This document shows, piece by piece, positions 5,467-60,795 of a stretch of 64,000 nt of DNA (its first letter is position 1; each line of letters opens with the position of its first letter). The stretch spans positions 768,001 to 832,000 of the forward strand of contig CAWFAK010000007.1 in the NCBI GenBank assembly GCA_963813715.1, given 5' to 3'. The translations under genes were made by a program, and so were the position numbers. Origin of the DNA: an uncultured Planctomycetaceae bacterium (GTDB taxonomy: Bacteria > Planctomycetota > Planctomycetia > Planctomycetales > Planctomycetaceae). The notes under the pieces were generated by a model that did no database searches, was not told the origin of the DNA, and saw only the letters and a list, made by a program, of their open reading frames with translations.

Positions 5467-7880
5467 GTGGTCAGAATGCGCTGTTGCTCGCGGCTGCTTC
5501 TGCTGCTCTTTTTCGCCGGTTCGCCCACCGAACTCGCCCTCGCTGGTGCGAATCGCGCGACCGACGACCGCGAGACTCTTTTCGAGACGCGGATTCGTCC
5601 GGTTTTGGTGGCGCAGTGCGTCCGGTGCCACGGAGCGGAGAAGATCAATAACGGGCTGCGCGTCGATGCCCGGCAGTCGTTGATTCACGGTGGCGACTCG
5701 GGCGCTGCGATCGTTCCCGGGCACCCCGAGCAAAGCTTGCTGTTGCAAGCGATCCGTCAGGCGGGCGATTTGAAGATGCCGCCACCGCCCGCGCCGGCTG
5801 CCCGACTCCATAATTGCCGACTTCGAGGAATGGATTCAAGACGGCGCGACTTGGCCGAAGAATGACGACCGAGGCTCAGCGTGGCGACAGCCGGCGGCTC
5901 CAGCGGCGCAGACTCATTGGGCGTTTCGGCCCGTCGTCAAAGTGACGCCGCCTGCCGATCCAAGCGGTTGGTCGGCCAACGCCGTCGACCGGTTCATCTC
6001 ACAGAATCTCAGAGCGCGGGGCTCAAGCCCGTGCGTCCGGCGCCTAAGTCCGTTCTGCTGCGCCGGGCGTCGTTCGATCTGATCGGCTTGCCGCCGACTC
6101 CCGCCGACGTCCGGGCCTTCATGGCCGACAACTCACCCGACGCATTCGAAAAGGTGATCGACCGCCTGCTCGCGTCGCCTCAGTACGGTGAACGCTGGGG
6201 CCGTTACTGGATGGACGTCGCCCGCTACGCCGACACGGCCGGCGACAACGCCGACTATCCCGTCCCGGAAGCGCGACTGTATCGCGATTACATTATCGAC
6301 TCGTTCAACGCCGACAAACCTTACGATCAGTTCCTTCGCGAGCAGATCGCCGGCGACATTTTGGCCAAGGACGGAGCTGCCGGCCGCTACGCCGAGCAGG
6401 TAACCGCGACGGGCTTTCTCGCTCTCTCGCGCCGCTATGCCACCGCCCCTTACGAGCTGTGGCATCTGACACTGGAAGACACGATTGACACGGTGGGACG
6501 AGCCTGCCTGGGGATCACGCTCCGTTGGCGCGGTGCCACGATCACAAGTTCGATCCCGTGCCTACGGCCGACTACTACCGGCTGTACGGCATTTTCGCCA
6601 GCACTCGTTTCCCTTATGCCGGTTCCGAAGAACTGGTGTCGAAAAAATTCGGCCGCACCGGATTTGTTCCGCTCGTGCCGGAGGCGGCGGCCGCTCCGCG
6701 GCTGGTCGCCTACCGCCGCGAGATCGACACCGACCGCAACGAAATCGATCACCTGCAGGCCGGACATCCTCGACGGGGACCGGGGGCGAAGCAGCTCAAA
6801 TCGCTGCAGCGCCGGCTCAAGGTCCTCGAACGAAGCGGCAGTCCTGCGGAGTTGCCGGTGGCCTACGCGGTCAGCGAAGGGACCGTGACAGATGCGCACA
6901 TTCAACTGCACGGCGAGCCGAGCCAAGAAGGGGCTCTCGTGACGCGCGGCGTTCCCCAATTCCTCCCCGACTTCCCCGGGACGGTGCCGACCGCCAACGA
7001 AAGCGGGCGGCTCGAGCTGGCCGACTGGATCGCCTCGCCGCGCAATCCGCTCACCGCCCGCGTGATGGTCAACCGAGTTTGGCAGCATCACTTCGGCCGC
7101 GGCGTCGTCGGCACCCCCTCGAATTTCGGGACGCGTGGCAGCCCTCCGACCCACCCGGAGTTGCTCGATTGGCTCACCGCGTCTTTCATTGAGCACGGCT
7201 GGTCGATCAAGTGGCTGCACCGGGAAATCATGAACTCGCGGACCTATCAGCTTGCGTCGACGACAGACCCGCATAATGAAACAATCGACGAATCGAACAC
7301 GTGGCACTGGCGGTTCGACCGGCAGCGACTCGACGCCGAAGCCATCCGCGACGCGATGCTCGACGTGGCCGGCACGCTCGACCTCGCGCGGGCCGGGCGG
7401 CACCCATTTCCTGATATCGACGATTGGACGTGGACGCAGCACGTCCCCTTCAAGGCTGCCTACCCATCGAACCATCGCAGTGTCTACCTGATGACGCAGC
7501 GGCTCCATCGGCATCCGTTTCTCGGCTTGTTCGATGGCCCCGACACCAACACCACCACCGACGTCCGCTCTTCGTCCACCGTCCCGCTGCAGGCTCTCTT
7601 CTTGATGAATAGCCAGTTCATGCGGGACACAGCTGCGGCCTTTGCCCAGCGCGTCTGTCGCGACGCTTCCGCGCCCCGTGATCGCATTTCGCTTATGGAA
7701 GAGTTAGCCTACTGTCGTCCGCCTTCGCCAGCGGAAACCGCGAAGGCGGAAGAGTTCCTCACACAGTTTCGCACCCTTGCCTTGTCCTCCGGCCTGAATC
7801 CCTCCCGAGCTGATGCCGAAGCGTGGTTGAGCTACGCGCGCGTCATCCTCGCTGCCAACGAGTTTTTTTACGTCGACTGA
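5467..7880 (+). CDS. Planctomycete cytochrome c / DUF1549 / DUF1553 (PSD1) protein (several frameshifts)
   Basis: FETRIRPVL..CVRCHG (CxxCH), LLRRASFDLIGLPP, YGERWGRYWMDVARYAD, ARCHDHKFDP, NPLTARVMVNRVWQHHFGRG, RLDAEAIRDAML, PLQALFLMN. Confidence 0.9.
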
Positions 7881-35835: not shown

Positions 35836-37520
35836 GGACTCCCTTGGCCGGACGGTTTGGAAGCAGCCGGTTTCGACGCGGGCGCCGGCGTCGCATTCGG
35901 CTGCGTTAAATTCGAGTGCGTCGAATTCACGTTCGTCAGATGGTGGCGGGCCCGCTCGACGTCGGCCGCGGCGTGCGGGTCGTCCGCGTAGAGGGCAATC
36001 ACGCCGTTCCAGATACTCTGGGCTTCGGGCAGTTTGCCGTCGGCCGCCAGCTTGTCGGCCCGGTCCAATGCGTCGTCGACGAACGACAAGTCCCGCGGAT
36101 GTTGTTCGTTCCGCGCCCGCAGCTGGTCCAGCAGCTTTTCGACGCGCGTACGTTCGGGGCTGTCGTCGGGCAGCAAGGCGGCAAAGGCGGCCAGCGTCCG
36201 TTCGGCTCCCGGCATGTCGCCGTCGTCGTGCTGATGGCGGGCCAGCGTGATCACGCGCTCGACCTCCGAGCGCGGCTCGCGTCGCCAGGCGCTCAGCTCC
36301 CCGCTCGCTTCCTCGCCCTGCTCGACGCTGCGGAGGCGAGCATTCACCACTCCGTAGACGATGATGAAGAGCGCGACTGCGAACAGGCCCAGGAGCACCC
36401 ACGTGTTCTCAAGCAGCCGCCGCAGAATGCCGCGTCGCTGCTCGCCTTCGATCTCGGCGCGAAACAGATCGCGCATCAGCGTGCCGTGGCCGCCCGACGC
36501 GGCCGAGCGGCCGGAACCCGATTGGCCGGCGGCGTTGAAGGTCGAGGCGTCCTCCTGCACGCCGTGCCCCATCGTCAGCTCGCCGGAGGAGACTTCGACC
36601 TTGCGGATGACCTCCTGCAGGCGGCGATTGACGACGAAGGCGTCGGCCGGCCGCTTTTCGGGATCTTTCTCCAAGAGCTGGCAGACAATGTCGTCGAGCC
36701 AGTAGGGAATGTCGGGGACGATGGTCCGCGGCCGGTCGAACTGGCTGTACTTGTGCTTGTGGATGACGTCGAGCGTCGTTTTGCCCGTGAAGGGCGGTCG
36801 CCCCGTGAGCATCACGTACATCACCGCGCCGAGCGAGTAGAGATCGCTGCGCCTGGTGATCCGCCGACCCTGCCCCTGCTCGGGAGACATGTACTCGGCC
36901 GTGCCGATGATGCCGCCGGTGACCGTCAGCTTCGAGCCGGCAAAGACCTGCGCGACGCCGAAGTCAGTGAGCTTGATGTCTCCGTCGGGCGTCAGCAGCA
37001 GGTTCGAGGGCTTGAGATCGCGGTGAATGATCCCCGCGTCGTGCGCGCTTTCGAGCGCCAGGCAGATCTGGATCGACAAGTCGATCACTTCCCGCCACGG
37101 AATCCGCTTCTCGCGCCGCAGCCGGGCGGTGAGCGTCTCGCCCGGCACGTATTCCATCGCGTAGTAGTACATCTCGCCGTCGACGCCGTGGTCGAACAGC
37201 TCGACGACGTGCGGGTTCTTCAGCTTCTGCAGCGCGTCGATCTCCCGCATGAAGCGGGCGACCAGCCCCTCCTCGCGGGCCAGCGACGGCGACAGCAGCT
37301 TGAGCGCGACGATCCGGCCGGTCTGCTCGTGACTGGCCAGGTAGACCGTCCCCATGCCGCCCGCGCCGAGCTTGCGCTCGACCAGATACGGCCCGATTCG
37401 GCTCGGTTCGGTGCCGACAGGAGTGGGGGAGGACACGCGGTTTGTGCCTGGCTTGAGGGTGGGCGAAACGCGAATCTCGCCGGCCGGCAGGCACAGCCTG
37501 CCAACGCGGACAGCGCACAA
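35832..37520 (-). CDS. Membrane Ser/Thr protein kinase (Hanks type), start uncertain
   Basis: [38 protein letters not shown]; one TM helix, then a helical extracytoplasmic tail. Confidence 0.93.
37485..37506. repeat. Solo copy of the REP seen at 9475-9545
   Basis: cggcaggcacagcctgccaacg versus cggcacgcacagcctgccctacg. Confidence 0.6.
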
Positions 37521-48684: not shown

Positions 48685-49467
48685 CTAGCGACGAGCATTG
48701 GTGCTGTTCTCAGGATGTTCAGTTCTAGTTTGCGGGTGGATCGCGCGCTTGTTCGCTGTGTGCGTCTCGGCTCGCCTTTCGACGACGCTGGGCGCGTGAG
48801 CCGGAATGGCATTGCGGACAAGATTGTTCCTCAGAATTGCTTCTCCCCGCGGACTTCGGAAGAACGTGTGGACTCGCTCGAGGAACGGGCGATTAAGCTG
48901 CGCCAGCTGAAGCAACCGCGGTAGCTCGACGACCTGCGCGAAGGTCATGTTTACCTGCAGGATTCGCGGAACCGGCTCAAAGATCGTCAGGCTTCGAGGA
49001 ATCGTCACGAATCCACTGGGGTTGGCGACGAGCACGTACTCGCCTGAACCGGCGACGAAGAGGAGGTCCTGCACGGTGCCAATCGCAACGCCACCGGCCA
49101 GGATTGCCCTCGAGCCGATGATATGGCTGCCGCGAATCAGACTCAGACTCGGGACCCCGGCAACAGGAACCGCTTGCTCTCCGGCCGCCGGGACCGGTTG
49201 GACCGGGGCTGCTGGGAGCGGTTGGGCCGCCGCGGATGGGCCCGGTACGGCGGGAAGCGCTTGGACTGGGGCCACGGGAACCGGTTGGGCGCCGGCTGCC
49301 GGAAGCGGCTGGGCTGGGGCTGCCGGGACTGGAACCGCCGGGGTCGGTTCTGGAACCTGGACAGGTGGATCGGCGCTGGCCGGCGCTTGGCCGAACGAAA
49401 CTTCAGTTGCCGACAGGGCGAGGCAGCCAACGAGAGCAATCACGGCACAGCAACGGATGGTGTTCAT
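48685..49467 (-). CDS. Secreted protein with Pro/Ala 8-aa repeats and a PRC-barrel-like domain
   Basis: Signal peptide; QPLPAAGA/QPVPVAPV/QPLPAAPV/QPVPAAGE repeats; RGSHIIGS..IGTVQDLL..EYVLV..FVTIP. Confidence 0.6.
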   Translation of the reverse strand: MNTIRCCAVIALVGCLALSATEVSFGQAPASADPPVQVPEPTPAVPVPAAPAQPLPAAGAQPVPVAPVQALPAVPGPSAAAQPLPAAPVQPVPAAGEQAVPVAGVPSLSLIRGSHIIGSRAILAGGVAIGTVQDLLFVAGSGEYVLVANPSGFVTIPRSLTIFEPVPRILQVNMTFAQVVELPRLLQLAQLNRPFLERVHTFFRSPRGEAILRNNLVRNAIPAHAPSVVERRAETHTANKRAIHPQTRTEHPENSTNARR

Positions 49468-49675
49468 TGGGATTCCTTATATTTTGCGTCGCGTCAAGTC
49501 CCTTGGTGGAAGGGCGCGACCATTATCGTTTGGAGGCATTACAGGCAGATTCGAAAGGTTTACGTCTGCGACACAGCGACTTGATTTCGGCCGCAAAGCC
49601 AATGCGCCCCGGGGACCAGACAGCGATCCCCGAGGCGTGACGACCATTGGACCAAAGCCATGGAGCCGGCGTCGG

Positions 49676-50736
49676 TCAGCGGCCAGTCCGGGCTTTTCTG
49701 GCGACGGCCGGAGACGCGGGCGCTGACGGCGAGGGGCTGGCTCCGCCTCGCGTCAGTTTGACGAACAGCTGGTAGCTGCCGGCATTGTCTGTGAAGACCG
49801 AATCCCAGGCCAAGATGTAAGCGACTCCGCCGGTTGAGCAGGTACCCACGTTGGGAACGTTGTGGCCCAGGAAGAAAAACGGAGGGTTGTTACTCATCGA
49901 TTGGTAGACCGACGGCAGAGTTCGCGCCTGCCCAATGGCGCGCGGCATGGTTGCCCATAGAGTGCGGTGGCTCCCATCGCCACTGTAATAGGTGCCTTCA
50001 CCTTGAGGCAGACAAACAACCACACCCCCCTGTTCGCACGAAATACCCCCCGAAGAAGGTTCCACTCCGAAGGGATCGCGGAACATTTCTGCAGCGCCTC
50101 CCTTAAGGAAGCCCTGAGCAAATTGCGCCGCGTCCGTAATCGCCGAATTGGCACTCGTGCTGCCAGTCTCTGCATCGACGACGGCCTCGGTGCCGTCGGC
50201 GACGAGGCCGATGATGCTCGAGAGAGTCGGATCGCCCGAGCTCTTGGAAAAGGAGCAGATCCCGAGGCGCTCATGATCTGGATGGTGTCTCCTGCCTGGA
50301 GTCCTGTAATCGACACGCCAAGGGGATCGGCCACGTTGATAAAGACCGCGACGAGACACGACGGCTGCGAGCGGTCCCAATCGAATTCTTTGCCGAATCC
50401 CGACGGTGCGGTGCCTACGGTGACGACGGTCGAAGTGCTCGATTGATTCGTGGCGCGGCTTACGGCCCGCAGACGTTGAGGCGTTGCCTTGTGCAGCGAT
50501 CCCGCGAGCTTGAGGTAGGAACTGTTGACGCCGCCGGTAGAGCCGGCAGCGTTCTTCGCCGCCCCACTGGTCTGCGTCGCGGGCGTGCCCCCGAACGGAA
50601 TCCGGCCGTTCTTCTTAATTGCGGCCTCGATAGCCGCGATGGCTTGTTTACTATCGGCGCGAACGTGCGTTGTGGCGAGTGTTAGCGCAACCGCCAACCC
50701 GACCGTCGTAAGCCGACCGAAACGAATGCGTGTCAT
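49676..50736 (-). CDS. Secreted hypothetical protein, divergent from the ECF sigma (frameshift near 50260)
   Basis: MTRIRFGRLTTVGLAVALTLATTHVRA signal; globular C-terminal part ending ILAWDSVFTDNAGSYQLFVKL. Confidence 0.65.
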
Positions 50737-50818
50737 GGGGATCCGCTCGCTTTCTGGGACGTTGTCCTGTTTGAAAATGGGTTCCGAAATCCCGGCCTCG
50801 ATTGAGCCCTCTTCCACT

Positions 50819-50849
50819 AGTGCGAAATCGCTTATCGATCTGCCGAAAA
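50819..50849 (-). promoter_or_regulatory. ECF-type promoter motif copy C
   Basis: Minus strand ttttcggcagatcgataagcgatttcgcact, upstream of ATG 50736. Confidence 0.65.
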
Positions 50850-50949
50850 AAAATGACAATTCTTCAAACCGCGATGGGAGATTAGGCGCGATGCGACGAA
50901 CATCGATGGGTCGTCGGTAATTCTTTCGAGCCCGATGTGCCGAAGCCGG

Positions 50950-50955
50950 TATACT
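50950..50955 (+). promoter_or_regulatory. Sigma70-type -10 (TATACT), probable leaderless promoter of the ECF gene
   Basis: TATACT 7 nt before ATG 50963; no Shine-Dalgarno. Confidence 0.5.
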
Positions 50956-50962
50956 CGATTGA

Positions 50963-51511
50963 ATGAGCGACGTGACGCGAATTCTCAACGCGATCGAACA
51001 GGGCGATTCTGAGGCGTCGGAGCAGCTCTTGCCGCTCGTTTATGACGCACTCCGCAGGCTCGCCGCTCATCGGATGGCGCAGGAGCGGCCCGGACAGACA
51101 CTCGACGCGACGGCTCTGGTGCACGAAGCCTATCTGCGGCTTGTCGAAGTTCCCGAGGTCGGGCAGTGGCACGGACGCGGGCACTTCTTTGCGGCCGCGG
51201 CCGAGGCGATGCGGCGGATCCTGGTCGACAATGCCCGCCGCAAGAGTTCCGTGAAACATGGCGGGCAGCGGCAGAGAGTTCCCGTAACGGACATCGCCGA
51301 CGAGAACGATGAGGGCCCGTTATTGGCGTTGGACGCCGCGTTGACCCGGCTTGCGGCTGAGGATCGTGTGGCTGCGAAAATCGTCGAAATGCATCATTTC
51401 GGCGGCTTGAGCCACGAGGTGATTGCCGATTCGCTGGGGCTGACGGTCTACCGGGTTCGCCAGAAATGGACCTACGCCCAGGTTTGGCTGCGGGACGCCA
51501 TCGAACGCTGA
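50963..51511 (+). CDS. ECF sigma factor, kinase-associated type (TIGR02999 / Sigma70_ECF-like)
   Basis: MSDVTRIL..GD..ASEQLLPLVYDALRRLA, GQTLDATALVHEAYLRL, HFFAAAAEAMRRILVDNARRK. Confidence 0.95.
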   Translation: MSDVTRILNAIEQGDSEASEQLLPLVYDALRRLAAHRMAQERPGQTLDATALVHEAYLRLVEVPEVGQWHGRGHFFAAAAEAMRRILVDNARRKSSVKHGGQRQRVPVTDIADENDEGPLLALDAALTRLAAEDRVAAKIVEMHHFGGLSHEVIADSLGLTVYRVRQKWTYAQVWLRDAIER

Positions 51512-51533
51512 ACTCAGCATCATCGGTGTTTTT

Positions 51534-51566
51534 TTTTCGACAGATCGGTCAGCGGATTTCGCATGA
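51534..51566 (+). promoter_or_regulatory. ECF-type promoter motif copy A
   Basis: ttttcgacagatcggtcagcggatttcgcatga, between the sigma stop and the kinase ATG. Confidence 0.7.
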
Positions 51567-51592
51567 ATAAAGGAAGCGCCTAAGGATCCTTC

Positions 51593-54500
51593 ATGCCGCT
51601 CGACCCCGATCGTGTCCAGGCTATCTTTCTAGCTGCCGTCGAAGCTGAGGATCTGGCGCAGCGCCTCCGAAGTCCTAAATGCCCAATGCGCTGACGACGC
51701 GCAACTGCGCGCCCGTGTCGAGGCGCTCCTGCGGCTGCATGATCAATCGCGCGAACTGCCCGAAGTCGGGACTCTCAACATCGCGCGGGAACGGGAGGCG
51801 CCGGCAATGGAGCCATCAGCCGCGAGTGCCGGCAAAATCATCGCGGGCCGCTACCGGTTGCTGGAAGAAATCGGCGAAGGAGGAATGGGAACCGTTTGGG
51901 TCGCCGAACAGATTCAACCGGTTCGGCGCCGCGTGGCGATCAAGCTCATCAAGTTGGGAATGGACACCCGTCAGGTCCTCTCGCGCTTCGAGCTCGAGCG
52001 CCAAGCGCTGGCCGTCATGGATCATCCGAACATCGCCAAAGTGCTTGACGGCGGAGTGACCGACCAGGGGTGTCCGTTCTTCGCGATGGAGTACGTCAAA
52101 GGCGTGCCCATCACCGAGTATTGCGATCAGGCCAGAGTCAGCGTCGAGGCCCGGCTTCGACTTTTTGTGCAGGTCTGTCAGGCCGTGCAGCACGCGCACC
52201 AAAAGGGAATTATTCACCGCGATTTAAAGCCCTCCAACATTCTGGTCTGCCCCTATGACGGTCGGCCAGTTCCCAAAGTCATCGACTTTGGCCTGGCCAA
52301 GGCGATCAACCAGCCGCTCACGGAAAACACGCTGTATACAGCGCACGGCGTCATGGTTGGGACGCCCTTGTACATGAGTCCCGAGCAGGCGGAGTTCAAT
52401 AACCTCGACGTCGATACTCGCTCCGACATTTATTCGTTGGGCGTCATTCTCTACGAACTCTTGACCGGAACGACACCCCTCGACCGGAAGCGGTTCAAGG
52501 ATGCGGCCTGGCAGGAAATCGTCAGGTTGATCAAGGAGGAGGAACCGAGCAAGCCGAGCACCAAGCTCAGCGGGTCGGGCTCATTGCCTGCCGTTGCCGC
52601 CCAGGCGCAGTTTGGAGCCGGCACAATTGACCCGCTTGGTGCGCGGCGATCTCGACTGGATCGTCATGAAAGCGCTCGACAAAGATCGCTCCCGCCGATA
52701 CGAGACGGCCAACGGCTTGGCGCGAGACCTCGAGCGATATTTGGCCGACGAAGTGGTCGAGGCCCGGCCCCCTTCGGCCGGCTACCGGCTCCTCAAGTTC
52801 GTTCGTCGCAACCGACGAGTCGTGGCTGCCGTGGGGCTGATTGCGCTGACCCTCGTCGCCGGCATCATCGGCACGACGTGGGGAATGTTGAGCGCGGTAC
52901 AAGCTCAAAAGGCTGAAGCTATCCGCGCGGAGGGGGAACGACTCGCCAAGCTTGACGCGGACGAACAGAAATCGAAAGCGATCGCAGCCAACGGACGGGC
53001 GCAAAAGTCGCGCGATCGGGCTGAGCGGCGATTCGAGCTCGCTGTCGAAGCGATCGAGAATTTCCGCTCCGTCGTCGACCGGAATCTCGACGTCAAAAAC
53101 CGACCGGAAAACGAAGCGTTGCGCAAGGCGCTGTTGCAGGCCCCTCTCGGCTACTACCAGAAGTTGCGGGACGATTTGAATGCCGGCGGGGACGCCAGCC
53201 CTGAGACGCGGACGCAACTTGGCGACGCGTATCTCAAGGTGGGCTCGCTCAACTACGACATCGGCTCGCAGGCCGACGCGCTCAAGGAGCTCGACGAGGC
53301 GGCGAACCTTTATGAGCGATTATTTCGGGAGGCACCGGCCGAACAAAAGCCCAAATACCGTGCCCGGCTCGCCCGGACGCTCGCCGAGCGCGGGGAACTC
53401 CAATCCTCCAGCTCGAATATGAACGCGCAGGCATTCGAATCGCTCCATCGCAGCCGGGAGCTGCAGGAAGCCTGCCTCCGCGACAACCCAGCAGACGTGA
53501 GTGCGCAGAACACTGGCCCGGGTGCTCTACAGTCTGGCCGGGCTCGAAGGCCGCAAAGGAAAGCTCGACTGGCGCTCAACACACTGAAAGCGAGCCAAGC
53601 GTCACTGGAAGAAGGTTGCCGACAAGCGCCGGACGATGTGGGGTTACAGACCTTGCTCGCCGGAGTGCATTTAAGGAGAAGCGAGCTTCTTTCCGAGCAG
53701 CGAGGCCGACTGGCGGACGCCCAGGATGCTGCGCAAACGGCGCTGCAATTCATCGAGGGACTCGTCCGCTCGCATCCCGATTCGGTGGAATGCAAACAGG
53801 AGTTGGCTCGGGCCTATTCGCGCCTGGGAATCATCAACCAGCGCCAAGGCGCCCAGGATCGGGCGCTCGAGCTTTTCAGCAAACAGGCCAGCACGTTCGA
53901 AGAGATGGTCCGCCTGCAGCCGACGCGCAACCATCTCAAGCTCGATCATGCTCTTGCGCTGGGCGGTCTGGCATCTGCCCAGTACCACCTCGGGCGGAAT
54001 GAAGAGGGACTGGCCAATCTGCAACGAGGGCGCGACCTCGCGGCGGCGCTCGTTCGCGAAAATCCGACGAATCTGACCTTTAAACGAGCGCTCAGCACTT
54101 TGGACAGCCGCAGGGTTTTTCCGCTTCATTCGATGGGACGCGTGGCGGAGGCGTTGGCGGCCGCGGAGTCCAGCACGACCTTTCTGGAGGAGGTCAACCG
54201 GGCCGAACCTGACGATTTGGGAGCGCTCAAGGATTTAGCGGGGGCTCACTATAACTGCGCACTTCTCAGCAGAGAATTGGGGCGCATCGACGCAGCGGAG
54301 GCGGAGTACAAGAAGGCTCTCGTCCTCCGGGAGCGTCTCGCGCAAAAGCACCCCGACGATCCTTCAATCATCGACACCATTGCGACAACGTTGGGGAACA
54401 TCGGCGTCTGTCAGGAAGACCGCGAGCATTTTGCCGAGGCGAAGGTGTCGTATCAGGGCGCCGTGGACTCCTTACAGAAGCTGTGCGCCGCCCATCCCGA

Positions 54501-55231
54501 CAGTGCTGCCGCTCAAAACCACTTTGCGCGGGCCCGACAGAATCTCGGCAACGTGCTGGCCAGGCTGGGTAAACCGGAGGAGGCGCTTGTCCCCCTCCTG
54601 CGCGGCTCAAGAAGCGAGCGAACGCCTCGCCCGGGAGCATCCGGGCGTTGTGGAATACCAGGACGACGTGGCCCGGGGCTTCCAATACCTCGCCGCGGCC
54701 CTGGCTCGATTGGGCCACGTCCGTGATGCCGAGAAATACTACTCCGAGGCAATTCGCGTCCGCGAGCAAACTCTTCAATCACATCCGACTGATTCCCAAA
54801 ACCTCGCCAGGCTCTTCACACTGTTCAACGAACGAGGAGACTTCGAGCTTGCGAGCCATCAGGCTGCGGCCGCCGTCGCCTCTTACCGAAACGCGGTCAA
54901 ACTGATCGAAGGCCAACCGCACGCGACAAGCGAGCAGCTCTACGACCTTGCGGCCGTCCATGCCAAGCTCGCAAGGAACGGCAGCAAAAGCGGCTTAGGG
55001 TTGAAAGCCGACGAGACGCGCGTCGCCGCCGACCAGGCGATGGCAGTGCTCGACAAGGCAGTCGGAGCCGGTTTCCGCAACCTCGACCAGATCAGCAAGG
55101 ACCCGAATTTCGACAGCTTGCGCCCGCGTGACGATTTCAAGAAGCTGCTCGAACGCTTAGGTCCCCGCTCAAAGCCCGCATCCGGTTCTGGAGGCTCGGG
55201 CGACGCAAACGGCCACGTGAGCGGAAGATAG
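51593..55231 (+). CDS. Ser/Thr protein kinase with TM helix and TPR sensor region (several frameshifts)
   Basis: [88 protein letters not shown], followed by TPRs. Confidence 0.92.
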
Positions 55232-55347
55232 TCCGGCGAGAATGTCGGCGCCGCGCCCAGTCATTGCGGCCGTAGGCACGCAATCGGAGGGCCGCCCCAA
55301 CGCCTCGGTGGGACAATCTTGACACTCGATCACGAATTTTTCATTTC

Positions 55348-55379
55348 TTTTCGACAGATCGACGGCGGATTTCGCATGA
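55348..55379 (+). promoter_or_regulatory. ECF-type promoter motif copy B
   Basis: ttttcgacagatcgacggcggatttcgcatga, upstream of GTG 55451. Confidence 0.7.
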
Positions 55380-55450
55380 CAGGTGGACGGGTCAATGCAA
55401 CCCGAAGATCCCTCGAACCGGAACCACCAACTCCAAGTAGGAGGCCAGTC

Positions 55451-56620
55451 GTGCGCCTTTCCAAACCGCCACTTCTTCTAATGACAGTGATCAGCCTAAC
55501 GTCTGCTTCGACGCCCATTCTAGCCCGCGGGCCGAGCGGGCAGTCGAAAAAGGGATCGACCCAAGCGAGCAAGGCCGCACAGGGGACGTCTCACCACCAG
55601 GCCAATTCGTCTTCCACTTCGACTTCGACAAAGGCTGGTTCAATCACAATTCTGAACACCGGCAAGGGACGCAGTGGCTTTGTCCCTGTCAGCCATTTGG
55701 AGAACACCCCTGTCGGTACCAGCGGCCAAGCTGGTGGCACGACGGGCACGGGTGGAACTCGCGGCACGACTGGAACCGGTGGCACGACAGGCACGGGCGG
55801 AACCGAAGGCAATACGGGAAAGGGCGGCGGCACGCTACTCAACGGCATCAACGGCATCTTTGGCGGCACGGCTGGGACCGGCACAACGGGTTCCGGCAAG
55901 GGTGGAACCGGCACTACGGGAACGGGTGGAACCGGTACCACGGGTGGGACGGGGGGCACGACGGGCACGGGTGGAACTGGAGGCACTACGATTGGAACCG
56001 GGGGTAAGGGCGGAGACGGCACCCTCGGCGGTACGACCAACGCAAACCCCAACGGCGGCAACCCCGGAGGGGGCTCGAGCGGCACTGGCACTAGCGGGAC
56101 CGGCACTGGCACTGGTGGGACCGGGACCGGCACGACGGGAACTGGCACGGGCGGCACCGGTACGACTGGCACTGGCACAACCGGAACCGGCACGACCGGA
56201 ACTGGCACGACCAATCGTCCTCCGATGCACTCCGGCAATGGCTATCCGGTTGGATGGGGAGTTCCGGCTCCTGTCGGCGCGACTTCGACTGCCGGCGTTG
56301 TCTCGACCACAGCCGATCCAGTCGCTGTTCCCGCCAATACGGCGGTTGCCGATGACGCGGCCAGCCTGACGACCGTGCCTGCAGGCGCGACCATCAAGGT
56401 GGACGCTCAGAATCTCGGCTCGCAGCCCGGCCGCGTTAGCATCGTGGTGGGCAACTTGGCGCTTCCCGGCGTCGTCGCGAACTGGAGCGACAATGCAGTC
56501 AACATCACGTTGCCCTCCGTCGAAGTGAGCGGACCGGTGCGAGCCAAAATCGTCGTGCGGCGTGCCGATGGCTCCGTCGCTATCGAGACGCCGTTCGAAT
56601 TGGCGGCCGACACTCACTGA
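55451..56620 (+). CDS. Secreted Gly/Thr-rich repeat protein with a C-terminal beta-sandwich-like domain
   Basis: AGGAGG Shine-Dalgarno, signal peptide, long (GGT/TGT)n tract, C-terminal VPAGATIKV..LGSQPGRV..WSDNAVNITLP..IVVRRADG. Confidence 0.75.
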   Translation: MRLSKPPLLLMTVISLTSASTPILARGPSGQSKKGSTQASKAAQGTSHHQANSSSTSTSTKAGSITILNTGKGRSGFVPVSHLENTPVGTSGQAGGTTGTGGTRGTTGTGGTTGTGGTEGNTGKGGGTLLNGINGIFGGTAGTGTTGSGKGGTGTTGTGGTGTTGGTGGTTGTGGTGGTTIGTGGKGGDGTLGGTTNANPNGGNPGGGSSGTGTSGTGTGTGGTGTGTTGTGTGGTGTTGTGTTGTGTTGTGTTNRPPMHSGNGYPVGWGVPAPVGATSTAGVVSTTADPVAVPANTAVADDAASLTTVPAGATIKVDAQNLGSQPGRVSIVVGNLALPGVVANWSDNAVNITLPSVEVSGPVRAKIVVRRADGSVAIETPFELAADTH

Positions 56621-56664
56621 GAATCTCGACCGTGACGAGCCTTGCTCGCCCGACCAAAGTCATC

Positions 56665-56707
56665 ACGGCTGAGAGGTCCAACCGGGGCCTCTCGGCCGTT
56701 CGTTTTT
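56665..56707 (+). terminator. Intrinsic terminator
   Basis: acggctgagaggtcc...gggcctctcggccgt followed by tcgttttt. Confidence 0.65.
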
Positions 56708-56762
56708 CTCCATTCGTGGCAATCTCGCAACCGCAACCGCCGAGCCGGAAATCTATGATTTT

Positions 56763-56795
56763 TTTTCAACAGGTTGTGCCGCCGGCGTCGCATGG
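56763..56795 (+). promoter_or_regulatory. ECF-type promoter motif copy D (degenerate)
   Basis: ttttcaacaggttgtgccgccggcgtcgcatgg, same spacing as copy A, upstream of ATG 56889. Confidence 0.5.
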
Positions 56796-56888
56796 CAGAG
56801 GGTGACTCTGGCAGACTTTGTGCAGATCGAAGCCCGGCTGCCCGGTCCGATCGTCGCGGGTCATGTCCTCCGCAGCAGGAGATCGGCA

Positions 56889-59452
56889 ATGCGTTTCAAT
56901 CCACTCGAACGGTGGTACCGGCAGGTCATTTCCCGACAACGCAAATCAGCAAAGCGATTGCGGCGGGCGACACTCGGCCAGCAGCTCGAACGTTTGGAGG
57001 ATCGCGCGCTGCTTTCCGCTATCACTCCGGCGGAAATGCGTCAGGCGTACGGCATCGACCAGGTGAAGTTTGGCGCCGCAGGGATCCCGGGCAACGGAGC
57101 CGGGCAAACAATCGGCATTATCGAGATCGGCACTGACGCTTCGCTCGTCTCGGATCTGCAATATTTCGACCAGCAACTCTTTGGTGCGGGGGCAACTGGC
57201 GCAGTTGCTCGACACCTTCGGCAGTTATGCTGGCCCAGTGTCCGGATCGACGAAGCCCTGGTTCGACACGATTCAGGACCCGAGTTTTCCCCCGTCGGTG
57301 GGAACGGCCAAACAGGATCTGGAGGCCGCGCTCGACGTCGAATGGGCGCATGTCATCGCACCGATGGCCAACATCGTGGTGGTGCAGACCGCCAGCAATC
57401 AGTCGGGCGCCGCGTACGTCGCTTCTCAAACGCAGCTCGGCGTCTCCACCGTGGCGAGCAGCTACTATCTCTTTCCCAATCTGAATCCGGCGAATTACTC
57501 GCAGCCGAACGTGGCCTTCGTCGGGATCACGGGAGACACGGGCACGTCGATCAATTCGCAGCAGGTGGGCTTCACGCTCAACAATTTCCCAGCATCCTCG
57601 CCCGCCATTATTGCCGTGGGTGGCACGACGCTGACCCTCAACGCGGATGGCTCGTATGGTTCCGAAACCGGCTGGGGCTTCGCCGGACCGGACCGATTCC
57701 TCACGGCCGATCAGGCGTATATCGCGCCCGGATATTGGAACGCCGTCTCGGGCGGCTTTAGTGGCACCTATTACACGTCGCCCGGACCCAGCGGCAGCAC
57801 CTCCACCGTCTGGTCAACGACGATCACATCCAGCGATGTGTTGGGGAAGAACGACAGCGGCCTCGAGCTTTCAGCGACCTGGACCCCCAGCCCGAGTAAC
57901 GCCGACAACGCCCAATACGAGATCTATGACGACGGCACGCTTGTCGACACGGTCACGGTCAATCAGCAACTGGCGCCAAACGGAACGCCCGGCACGCTCA
58001 ACTCACGTACCGCAACGTTTCAGGAGTTGGCCGCCCTCACGAAGGTCTCCGTGGGCGACACGATCCAGATCGTCGTACCCGCGCAGAATGCCGATGGCTC
58101 CGTGGTCATCGACGCGATCGGGCTCGGCCCCGACGACGCCAGCGGCGGCGGGCTGTCTAACAATCCTCAACCCAGCTTTCAAAACGGCCTCGTGATTCAC
58201 GACGGCAACACCGTCATTTCCAGCAACGGCACGCGGGCCACGCCCGACGTCGCCTTCGACGGCGACTACGTCAACAGCCCGGTGGAGATTTACAACCAGG
58301 GCGCGGTCCAACTCGGCGCCGGCACAAGCTTGGGAGCACCCGCTTGGGCAGCGTTGCTCGCCATCGCTGACCAGGGATTGGCTCTGTCCGGCCAACCGGC
58401 GATGAGCACGGCAACTGCGCTCGCCGGGCTCTACAGCCTGCCGTCCTCCGATTTCCACGACGAGACCAGTGGCTACAACGGCTATTCGGCCGGACCGGGC
58501 TATGACCTCGTTACAGGTTTGGGAAGTCCGGTCGCTAATCGGCTCATCCCCGACCTGGACAACGCGGCGTTAAACATCCATTCGCCAGCGATTACCAACA
58601 CACCCGCGACCTCACCCGCGATTCTCGATACGCCTTACTCGTTTCAATATATGACCACTGGTTCACCCGCGCCGACGTTCACGCTCGTGCCGGGGAGTCG
58701 CACTGCCCAGTGGATTCACGCTCAGCTCGGCGGGCCTTTTGTCCGGGGAAGACACAAACTTGGCCGATATTGGCCGGACCTTCACCGGCTCGGTCGATGC
58801 GGGCAACGGCATCGGCAACGACGCGATTCAGGCCTACAGCATCACGGTCAATGCGCCGGCGTCCCACCCGAGCGTGAAGATCGTGGCGCCGCTATCGGTC
58901 GTCCTGCCAGTGGAACCCGTCCCACTCCTCCTCTTGGCGAGCGACACGAACGCGACGGCTCGGGTCGCGTCCTTTCGCTTCGATATTTCGTACGGGGACG
59001 GCACAACGAACAAGGTGACGTCGAAGAGCCCGCTGCTGATCGCTCACATCTTCAAACACCCGGGCACTTACACGGTGACAGTCACGGCGAGCGACGAATA
59101 CTGCCACGTGAGCGCGCCGACGCGTGTGACGATAAAAGTGCTCTACCTGCCCTTTGGCCCGATTCCGTTCGACCCGAATCAACCCGCCATGATTGTAGGA
59201 GAAACGTCGAGCAGCCAGACGGCCACATTCTCGACCGCGGGATCGAGCGGGATCACCGTGACTTTGGCGGCCGAAGCCGGAACCGGCCAAACTGTCCCGC
59301 TCGTCGATTACGAGCAGGGAGTCAGCCCAGGACTCACCGCCGCGGCCGACCTGTTGGAGAACCCAATGGCCGACAATCCCCAATTCGAGCCAAATAGCGA
59401 CGCGATTCAGTGGGCTGCAGTGTCAGCCGCGGTGAATTTGCTTGCCATGTGA
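56889..59452 (+). CDS. Secreted S53 (sedolisin/kumamolisin) peptidase with LEDR leader, internal insert and Ig/PKD domains (frameshifts near 57195 and 58700)
   Basis: LERLEDRALLS, GAGQTIGII, EAALDVEWAH, TGDTG, PASSP.IIAVGGTTL, PDVAFD, GTSLGAPAWA, GYDLVTGLGSP; PKD-like YGDG..HIFKHPGTYTVTVTASD. Confidence 0.9.
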
Positions 59453-59727
59453 CTTGGTAATGGGTGGTGGGTGCGAGTTGCGTTGCTAGGCGGCCGACTT
59501 CTCCCAATCCATGTGGAGTAAAACGACAATTATCCCAACGAGGACAGATGAGTTCGAGCGCGCCTGGCATTGCCGCGCGGGGCTCACGTTCGCGACGCGC
59601 TGGTACTGAGAGCGGCAGTGCCGAGACCCACTGCCGCTAATCCAATCCCGGTCCGCGGGACTCCGAATCAGAGCCCCGCTGGACCGCCACATCATCAAGT
59701 GACCCGATCGGTCCTCGCGTGCCGCCG

Positions 59728-60795
59728 TCACAAAGCCGAGCCTGCCAGCGCCGACTCGCTTCGACGTAAATTGACCGCACGGTCCGGTGCCGATAAGAAG
59801 TCCACGGCCATCGTCGACGCGGCGTGCGTCTCGACCGGCGGGAGCGGCCTCTGCCGCCGTAGCAGCGAGATGACGGCGGGAAGGCCGATCAGGCCCATCA
59901 CGACAATCACTCCTAGGGCGAACACCGCGATCGTGTCCGGGCTGACGTCCGACGGCAGGACTTTCGCGAGAGACGCATAGCCCACGACCGTCGCATTGTG
60001 AATCCCGTGCACCAGCATGCCCGGCTTGATCGAATTCGTTCGGTAGGCAAGTAACCCGGTGATCACACCCAGGGGCACCACCCCGAACATGTGGTGCACG
60101 GAGTCGAAATGCAGGAGCGCGAACAGCAGCGTCGAGACGCCGATGGCAACGGCCGGAGACCACCGTTGGAGAAGCCTCCGCTGCAAGTAACCGCGAAACA
60201 GGGCTTCTTCCACGAGTGCCGGCAGAATGCTCACGAGGATGCTCAGCAGGGTCACGGTGCGCCAAGAACCGTCGTTGATGGCGGCGCCGATCACGTTTTG
60301 CGTCGGAGCGGCGCGAGTCAGCAGGTGCGACAAGACCAAGAAGACCAACGAGGCCGAGAAGGTGAAGGCCGCCAGCGTGACGAGCTTGAGGCGCCCAAAG
60401 ACGCGGCCTGTTTGGGGCAGGAAGCCGAGTCGTTGTTTGATCGGCTCCTTCGAGCGCCGCGCGGCATACAGAAGGCCGGCGGCCATTCCGAGCTGAGCGG
60501 GGATCAAGCAAAGTAGCAGGGCCGGCACCGGCTGCTGAAGAATCTCTTGGATCCGCGTTTGAATCTGATCGCCGCCGGCCCCCTGCGCTCCCAGGACGAT
60601 GCCCATCCCGACCGCCACCGCCAGCAGCATTAGGATTGAGGCCATCTGGCCGGAGATCACGGCGAAAACCAGACCGGCAAAGGTCGTCCACACGCGCGGC
60701 TTGCCAATCTTCGGGCTAACGGCTGGCTCCGATTCACGAACGGGTTCACAAGTGTCGAAAACTCGGACCGGTTCAGAGGCGATTGTCGAGATCAT
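59728..60795 (-). CDS. CPBP (CAAX/Abi) intramembrane glutamic peptidase
   Basis: EEALFRG, FALLH, HGIHN; multiple TM helices. Confidence 0.9.
   Translation of the reverse strand: MISTIASEPVRVFDTCEPVRESEPAVSPKIGKPRVWTTFAGLVFAVISGQMASILMLLAVAVGMGIVLGAQGAGGDQIQTRIQEILQQPVPALLLCLIPAQLGMAAGLLYAARRSKEPIKQRLGFLPQTGRVFGRLKLVTLAAFTFSASLVFLVLSHLLTRAAPTQNVIGAAINDGSWRTVTLLSILVSILPALVEEALFRGYLQRRLLQRWSPAVAIGVSTLLFALLHFDSVHHMFGVVPLGVITGLLAYRTNSIKPGMLVHGIHNATVVGYASLAKVLPSDVSPDTIAVFALGVIVVMGLIGLPAVISLLRRQRPLPPVETHAASTMAVDFLSAPDRAVNLRRSESALAGSAL

Follow-up and report, generated by a model that had tools for sequence, protein, structure and literature searches.

Kinase-linked extracytoplasmic function (ECF) sigma factors abound in Planctomycetes, and the locus described here raises the question of which genes such a sigma factor controls and where its promoters lie. 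The window, that is, the whole stretch of DNA analyzed, covers 64 kb of an uncultured Planctomycetaceae genome (G000:C7:768001-832000; assembly of 7,488,327 bases in 18 contigs, 63% G+C) and contains a gene for a 182-aa ECF sigma factor (50963..51511, plus strand) followed by a Ser/Thr kinase gene. A first-pass annotation had proposed that a two-part motif, repeated four times around this pair, marks a self-contained regulon in which the sigma factor drives three secreted proteins and its own kinase. This interpretation is the best-supported reading of the locus and remains a prediction. We consider it quite likely that the four copies are cognate promoters of the adjacent sigma factor, a view supported by the restriction of the motif to the locus, its conservation together with the target genes, and the covariation of its -35 half with the sigma-4.2 helix. 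These three points, together with a predicted feedback through the kinase gene, extend the earlier proposal.

The pattern TTTTCRRCAG-N{15,16}-CGCA matched exactly four times in the window, as originally reported, at 50849->50821 (-), 51534-51563 (+), 55348-55376 (+), and 56763-56792 (+), against an expectation of 0.02 per window (mean of shuffled sequences, with 0 of 100 shuffles reaching four). Five matches were found in the whole assembly, four of which are the locus copies, and the fifth, at C12:262848, scores below 18 bits by weight matrix and looks like a chance occurrence. For this scoring, a two-block weight matrix derived from 26 sites of relatives, none of them from the window genome, was run over both strands of the 18 contigs. 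Only five sites exceeded 18 bits, namely, copies B (53.2), C (45.2), D (42.9), and A (38.8), followed by a site at 18.2 bits (G000:C5:442) that contains the left half only (T-rich-CGGCAGATCGGTC), carries no -10 box, and is located 442 bases from a contig end. This separation of the four copies from the rest of the genome indicates that the motif is confined to the locus and, in this assembly, is found neither in coding nor in wrongly oriented positions.

Each of the four copies is located between genes and directed into one of them, 29-96 nucleotides (nt) 5' of its start codon, which holds after start codons were reset using signal peptides, ribosome-binding sites, and orthologues. Copy A (T8-CGGCAG-N15-CGCAC; 50820..50854, minus strand) faces the gene of a secreted lectin-like protein, target 1 (49676..50736, minus strand, ATG at 50736). 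Copy B (T9-CGACAG-N16-CGCAT; 51529..51564, plus strand) lies in the 81-nt spacer between the sigma stop codon and the kinase gene (51593..55231, plus strand, ATG at 51593). Further along the plus strand, copy C (T-rich-CGACAG-N15-CGCAT; 55343..55377) precedes the gene of a secreted Gly/Thr-rich protein, target 3 (55451..56620, GTG at 55451), and copy D (T8-CAACAG-N16-CGCAT; 56758..56793) precedes that of a predicted secreted S53 peptidase, target 4 (56889..59452, ATG at 56889). Two details of the first-pass annotation had to be corrected. The exact strings that it attributed to copies A and B are in fact common to the kinase and Gly/Thr copies, the minus-strand copy reading TTTTCGGCAGATCG and GCGATTTCGCAC. 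Likewise, the peptidase copy, then described as degenerate, is not the weakest; this is copy A, which scores lowest because it has CGCAC where the other three have CGCAT.

To evaluate the conservation of the motif, 14 related loci were fetched and more were added later, yielding an alignment of 36 sites, of which 4 are from the window and 32 from same-genus loci. The resulting consensus comprises a T-run of 7-9, CGACAG, nTCG, a variable center, and GGAT(G/T)-TCGCATG(G/A), with a spacer of 16 nt at 29 sites and 15 nt at 7. Column information ranges from 1.1 to 2.4 bits in the conserved blocks versus 0.1 to 0.6 in the flanks, and is also low in the spacer center. A G located nine nt after CGCAT, inside a purine-rich stretch, is present in 35 of 36 sites and may reflect the surroundings of the start site or a second contact; junctions from across the phylum show GTGGA or ATAGA at roughly that offset. 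Orientation relative to the downstream gene is the same at all 36 sites, and, within the genus, orthologous and paralogous loci alike keep the motif before the four gene families described above. The downstream gene encodes the kinase at 12 sites (11 in related loci), the lectin-like protein at 7 (6 related loci, with the same position and orientation, and protein identity as low as 40-50%), the Gly/Thr protein at 6 (5 in related loci), and the S53 peptidase at 7 (6 in related loci). Among the seven sites that remained in one of the scans, three have an inspected open frame of at least 100 aa encoding other proteins with secretion-type N-termini, i.e., 911-aa and 713-aa Gly/Ala/Thr-rich repeat proteins, which we read as beta-helix-like and which gave no Pfam or NCBIfam match, and a 191-aa Tyr-rich protein; the other four lie at contig ends or have a reading frame that was not inspected.

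The motif also keeps close to sigma genes of this family at the genome scale. In the complete-looking genome G003, none of the seven strict matches is more than 34 kb from a PF07638 sigma match, and in five further same-genus genomes eight of nine matches adjoin a PF07638 sigma (0 for the reversed-pattern control). In G009 and G005, 6 of 11 matches are beside a PF07638 sigma, and the other 5 have no listed sigma match nearby. The 60 genomes of other genera in the family contained no motif clusters, with 0-2 scattered matches each (19 in total, versus 5 for the reversed control). A Gemmataceae locus, L074, shows the same two-promoter layout, with a kinase copy and a divergent copy that are weaker (20.8 and 24.9 bits). 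The self-contained module originally envisaged thus stands for this assembly and fails in relatives, in which the motif also occurs 27-34 kb away (G003) or on another contig (G009:C57 and G006:C22). The distant copies of G003 are located in L039 (G003:C1:1296500-1312500), at 7537 (+) and 14272 (+), 27-34 kb from the orthologous locus. One of them scores 47.6 bits and precedes a gene, and the other, weaker at 22.4 bits and with CGCAG, stands before the gene of a second kinase (87.5% identical) that has no sigma gene in front.

The sigma factor is of the kinase-linked ECF type, in agreement with the first-pass annotation. It matches PF07638 at 9.9e-55 (residues 1-180) and TIGR02999 at 186.7 bits (cut-off 126.15), in place of two Pfam matches for sigma-2 and sigma-4, and its closest relatives, with 92-94% protein identity, belong to uncultured Planctomycetaceae metagenome-assembled genomes. 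Its region 2.2 reads D48-A49-T50-A51 directly before LVHEAY, at the position of DAED in other sigma factors, with the register taken from motif descriptions in PMC8999054 and PMC13147305 rather than from an alignment with EcfP or EcfK; here and below, statements on published systems refer to the available excerpts of the cited papers. In EcfP (STTA) and EcfK (QATE), the Thr found at the former DAED position is the phosphosite that restores RNA polymerase binding (PMC8999054, PMC8103513, PMC13147305). No anti-sigma gene is present beside the sigma gene, whose neighbors are the lectin-like and kinase genes, and no anti-sigma family was returned by the Pfam and NCBIfam scans. Based on its domain, the kinase gene at +1, and the Thr of region 2.2, this sigma factor is ECF43-like, the published ECF43 group being listed for Proteobacteria only.

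A comparison with its paralogues connects the two halves of the motif with the two DNA-binding domains of the sigma factor. The genome holds six PF07638 paralogues, all of which read Q/D-A-T-A at the DAED position, and only the one of the window locus has the motif nearby. Between 13 motif-linked sigma factors and 8 motif-free paralogues, sigma-2 is near-identical, whereas the sigma-4.2 helix differs (TVYRVRQKW versus SxATAxRxW). The -10 box follows the constant domain. Of 22 paralogue junctions, 10 have CGCAT no more than 70 nt past the sigma stop (sigma end located in 22 of 28 loci; reverse strand, 0; 2000 shuffles, mean 1.4, maximum 6), as do, with a limit of 80 nt, 17 of 57 junctions drawn from the whole phylum (sigma end located in 57 of 75 loci; reverse strand, 3; shuffles, mean 3.5, maximum 10), some junctions in these sets being orthologous to one another. 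The -35 box follows the variable one. The CGACAG/CGACAA class goes with a TVY(R/Q)xRQKW helix, including in two Gemmataceae loci at 60-61% identity, one of them L074, that carry CGACAG or CGACAA and a TVYQARQKW helix, while GTGAG-like boxes go with ISxATAxRxW and TGGCACA boxes with RTANR or RSTHR. A shared -10 box with a constant sigma-2, and a -35 box that varies with the sigma-4.2 helix, is what would be predicted if a two-domain sigma factor reads the motif. A sigma-54 promoter was considered and rejected, since the copies do not have GG and GC at a distance of 10 base pairs (bp) and since, for the TGGCACA class, 16 nt separate the first box from the second.

No copy of the motif precedes the sigma gene itself, the best sense-strand matrix score upstream being -17.1. 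Instead, GGTATACTCG is invariant in the seven aligned loci upstream of the sigma gene, and TATACT (50950..50955, plus strand) stands exactly 7 nt before the ATG in all of them. The four bases between this box and the ATG vary among the seven loci, and no ribosome-binding site is found there. We propose TATACT as a candidate housekeeping-type -10 box of the sigma gene, although a scan found no full housekeeping promoter before it, and its position only 7 nt from the ATG suggests that the sigma mRNA is probably leaderless.

The kinase (~1210 aa) comprises an N-terminal extension, a Pkinase domain (8.5e-42), one hydrophobic segment, and a long region matching tetratricopeptide repeat (TPR) families. 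The same domains are present in an intact 1206-aa orthologue (L014:6028-9648), and the membrane helix corresponds to the single hydrophobic stretch, as read by eye. Terminator-like hairpins close target 1 (49605..49637, minus strand; 14-pair stem with 10 G-C pairs, T-rich tail after) and target 3, between its gene and copy D (56665..56699, plus strand; 15-pair stem with 10 G-C pairs, then a T-run). None is located between sigma and kinase, so that the kinase can be made basally by read-through and raised by copy B.

Taken together, these features suggest the following mechanism. The sigma factor would be made constitutively from its own promoter, as a probably leaderless mRNA, and the protein would be inactive because it has D-A-T-A in place of DAED, the acidic motif for RNA polymerase binding. 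The membrane kinase, whose TPR region lies past the membrane segment, would first be made by read-through from the sigma gene and, upon a signal, would phosphorylate Thr50, an activation step proposed by analogy with published ECF43 work. The active sigma factor would then read T-run-CGACAG as the -35 element through its sigma-4.2 helix TVYRVRQKW, and TCGCAT as the -10 element through sigma-2, with the boxes 15-16 bp apart, and would drive four units, i.e., the kinase, lectin-like, Gly/Thr-rich, and S53 peptidase genes. Positive feedback would thus operate via the gene of the activating kinase and not via the sigma gene. Within this scheme, we infer the transcription starts, the dependence on this sigma factor, the signal, and the membrane side of the TPR region.

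The same architecture is found in known ECF43 systems, and the locus is a well-supported but predicted further example of this kind of kinase-linked switch. EcfP/PknT of Vibrio parahaemolyticus also combines a PF07638-type sigma factor with a Ser/Thr kinase gene directly downstream and no anti-sigma gene (PMC8999054, PMC8103513), and EcfP has its Thr at the same third position of the former DAED motif. Differences include the planctomycete host, the predicted output of three secreted proteins in place of a polymyxin-resistance regulon, and the promoter, which here sits before the kinase and not before the sigma gene. EcfK/PknS of Xanthomonas citri is likewise a pair of sigma factor and transmembrane Hanks-type kinase, in which T51 of EcfK aligns by position with T50 of the window sigma, and EcfK (QATE) similarly retains one acidic residue in the motif (PMC13147305). 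EcfK differs in its output, a type VI secretion system, and in the additional phosphosites of its linker, and no promoter consensus was found in the available excerpts of PMC13147305. The ECF43 group as a whole (ECF classification 2.0, Casas-Pastor et al. 2021, PMC7826278) shares the Sigma70_ECF domain, S/T in place of DAED, and a kinase at +1 that has tetratricopeptide repeats and a single membrane helix, but lists Proteobacteria only, in contrast to the planctomycete sigma described here. As in the classical autoregulated promoters of ECF41 (TGTCACA-N16-CGTC) and ECF42 (TGTCGAT-CGTC) (PMC7826278), the element is in two parts, has a spacing of ~16 bp, and contains CG in its -10 box. Unlike those promoters, it is absent before the sigma gene, and the predicted feedback passes via the kinase gene.

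Several observations weigh against the adjacent sigma factor as the sole reader of the motif, or against parts of the proposed mechanism. The first Asp of DAED is kept in D-A-T-A, in contrast to STTA in EcfP. The conserved stretch, ~45 bp plus the G nine nt after CGCAT, exceeds the contacts of a sigma factor, so that a second factor could also bind. In L037 (G009:C57) at 5560 and L038 (G006:C22) at 2823, the motif is retained at the S53 orthologue, which is next to a paralogue sigma of 55-57% identity, and in G009:C57 the kinase spacer of that paralogue is devoid of the motif. Adjacency is therefore an imperfect guide to which sigma factor reads the motif, and the S53 gene in these two genomes would be part of the regulon but controlled from another place in the genome. 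The published in silico motif of proteobacterial ECF43 members, "GTC in -35 and CAG in -10," came from a search 5' of the sigma gene (PMC7826278) and has no obvious match to T-run-CGACAG-N15/16-TCGCAT, which here is located downstream of it. Furthermore, the related loci are not independent, so that the counts over aligned sites overstate independence, and scoring the relatives' own sites with the matrix is circular. Finally, two metatranscriptome runs (X4 and X14) showed neither transcription nor starts, their contigs covering the whole 11 kb, intergenic regions included, at a DNA-like depth. Transcript ends at copy A were also considered in these runs and rejected, as the ends among the listed RNA contigs (stop at 50831 in X4, starts at 50853 in X14 and 50940 in X4) do not coincide; DNA contigs bridge the copy A region where these RNA contigs end.

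The arrangement in G009 and G006 is what would be expected if the motif were read by another sigma factor, i.e., by one or several of the five other PF07638 paralogues, with the locus as the output of a wider network. The almost identical sigma-2 and the common -10-like box of the six paralogues also agree with this possibility. However, the motif in the window genome is present only beside the window-locus sigma, the -35 boxes in the kinase spacers of the other paralogues differ, in keeping with the differences in their sigma-4.2 helices, and the CGACAG class follows the TVY(R/Q)xRQKW helix even in Gemmataceae, which together make a paralogous reader unlikely. We judge it slightly less probable again that the motif is the operator of a non-sigma DNA-binding regulator, for instance a dimer on the half-similar TCGACAG/TCGCATG two helical turns apart, perhaps laid over an ordinary promoter. 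Its halves do have TCG-CA in common, and the length of the conserved stretch, with its downstream G, would suit such an operator. Yet the fixed orientation at all aligned sites, the 15/16-nt half-site spacing, and the -10 box shared with paralogues fit a two-domain sigma factor, no regulator gene other than sigma and kinase travels with the motif in the related loci, and a simple scan found no housekeeping-type promoter beneath the copies (one site in 10.3 kb, not at a copy).

The copies might also be what is left of a DNA cassette after duplication, or a housekeeping promoter in variant form, in either case unlinked to the sigma factor, since TCGACA differs from TTGACA by one base and copies B and C have long identical strings. 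This explanation appears very improbable, given that both boxes are retained at targets whose proteins are 40-50% identical, even as spacers and flanks diverge, that TCGCAT lacks the A at position 2 needed by housekeeping -10 boxes, that the motif is absent from the rest of the 7.49-Mb genome, and that other genera of the family yield only scattered single matches. Recognition by the adjacent ECF43-like sigma factor thus accounts best for the locus restriction, the conservation with targets, and the box-helix covariation.

We next consider the predicted outputs. Target 1 carries a signal peptide, has an intact 357-aa orthologue (L015:8289-9362), and falls in a family that comprises 46 clusters and lacks a Pfam domain; Pfam and NCBIfam searches with the protein likewise returned no family. 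An atlas lead placed PA-IL on 12% of the third-ranked target 1 cluster (score 0.86). Its AlphaFold2 model (pLDDT 82.7) aligned with the lectins PllA, EclA (EclA-N), and PA-IL at VIA-align Z scores of 8.9, 8.6, and 7.4, respectively, the next row scoring 6.3, and the best match (Z 8.9) had a root-mean-square deviation of 2.7 over 117 of 121 residues with 24% identity. Foldseek against the PDB gave no match at E <=0.001, the agreement being weak (E 0.15). On the basis of the model, target 1 is predicted to have a PA-IL/PllA-like lectin fold, which we treat as a resemblance in fold and not as a function. Target 3, for which no Pfam or NCBIfam family was found, consists of a conserved N-terminal part and a conserved C-terminal domain of ~110 aa (47-77% identical in relatives), separated by a low-complexity linker that is Gly/Thr-rich here and becomes Pro-rich in relatives. 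In target 4, two stretches flanking an inserted domain match kumamolisin (5.6e-14) and sedolisin (1.3e-10), the GTS of the protein aligns with the GTS catalytic-serine motif of kumamolisin, and an Ig-like domain and a PKD domain (3.3e-11) are also present. The catalytic Glu and Asp would be expected in its N-terminal piece. No Pfam peptidase match was obtained at E up to 1, and we regard the protein as a predicted secreted S53 (sedolisin/kumamolisin-like) peptidase.

The kinase, peptidase, and lectin-like genes are each split across two to four frames in the window, by single- or two-base indels at eight places, and the protein analyses above used intact orthologues or separate unbroken pieces because of these breaks. 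Alignment of the kinase gene with two orthologous loci revealed single-base differences at 51664, 52604, 53499/53571, and 54597. We mapped contigs of four independent public short-read runs (two from soil DNA and two metatranscriptomes) onto 49000-60000. The frame-restoring change was found in all four runs at 50263 in target 1 (where Illumina contigs insert T) and at 52604, 53570, and 54599 in the kinase gene, and in three of the four at 51664 and 53502 in the kinase gene and at 57198 and 58698 in target 4. Decay into pseudogenes was rejected accordingly; this restoration, along with a marker completeness of 82.6% in only 18 contigs, points to indel errors of a long-read assembly. Homopolymer length is also unreliable in this assembly, the T-run of copy B being T9 in the window and T7 in two orthologous loci. 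Since two of the four Illumina runs omit two bases at 51526, at this T-run (51526-51533), the true run of the kinase copy is probably T7 and not T9.

Other genes in the vicinity lack the motif. A CAAX-type (Rce1-like) membrane protease gene (59728-60795, minus strand; PF02517, 3.6e-21) is convergent to the S53 gene, and a Pro/Ala-rich secreted protein is encoded just beyond the target 1 terminator (48685-49467, minus strand). The latter neighbor is syntenic, as it also follows the target 1 orthologue of G010 (L015:7241-8083). A further Ser/Thr kinase domain (36765-37427, minus strand), 35.6% identical to the orthologous kinase, lies ~14 kb upstream with no motif copy near.

In the literature consulted, we found no defined target promoter or regulon for planctomycete kinase-linked ECF sigma factors, and the sole printed ECF43 motif found in the available excerpts was the two-triplet in silico prediction for proteobacterial members; bioRxiv supplements and the primary EcfP paper may hold a consensus. 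With the present locus, a concrete candidate promoter can be named, along with four transcription units and one phosphosite (Thr50) that are likewise predicted. More broadly, planctomycete ECF43-like pairs could form a natural set of mutually insulated switches built under one rule, in which the sigma factor is constitutive and probably leaderless, the sigma-dependent promoter lies in the short sigma-kinase spacer and so directs feedback to the activating kinase, the -10 box TCGCAT, read by a near-identical sigma-2, is common to all, and a class-specific -35 box is set by a few sigma-4.2 residues. We give this generalization slightly less than an even chance. If true, the targets of many uncharacterized kinase-linked planctomycete sigma factors would be readable from sequence, and the link between the -35 box and the sigma-4.2 helix suggests a way to assign targets to paralogous sigma factors from sequence alone. 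For the organism itself, a soil planctomycete, the nature of the predicted products (lectin-like, mucin-like Gly/Thr, and S53 peptidase proteins here, as well as beta-helix-like ones in relatives) suggests that a signal induces the cell to alter its surface or its use of extracellular protein.

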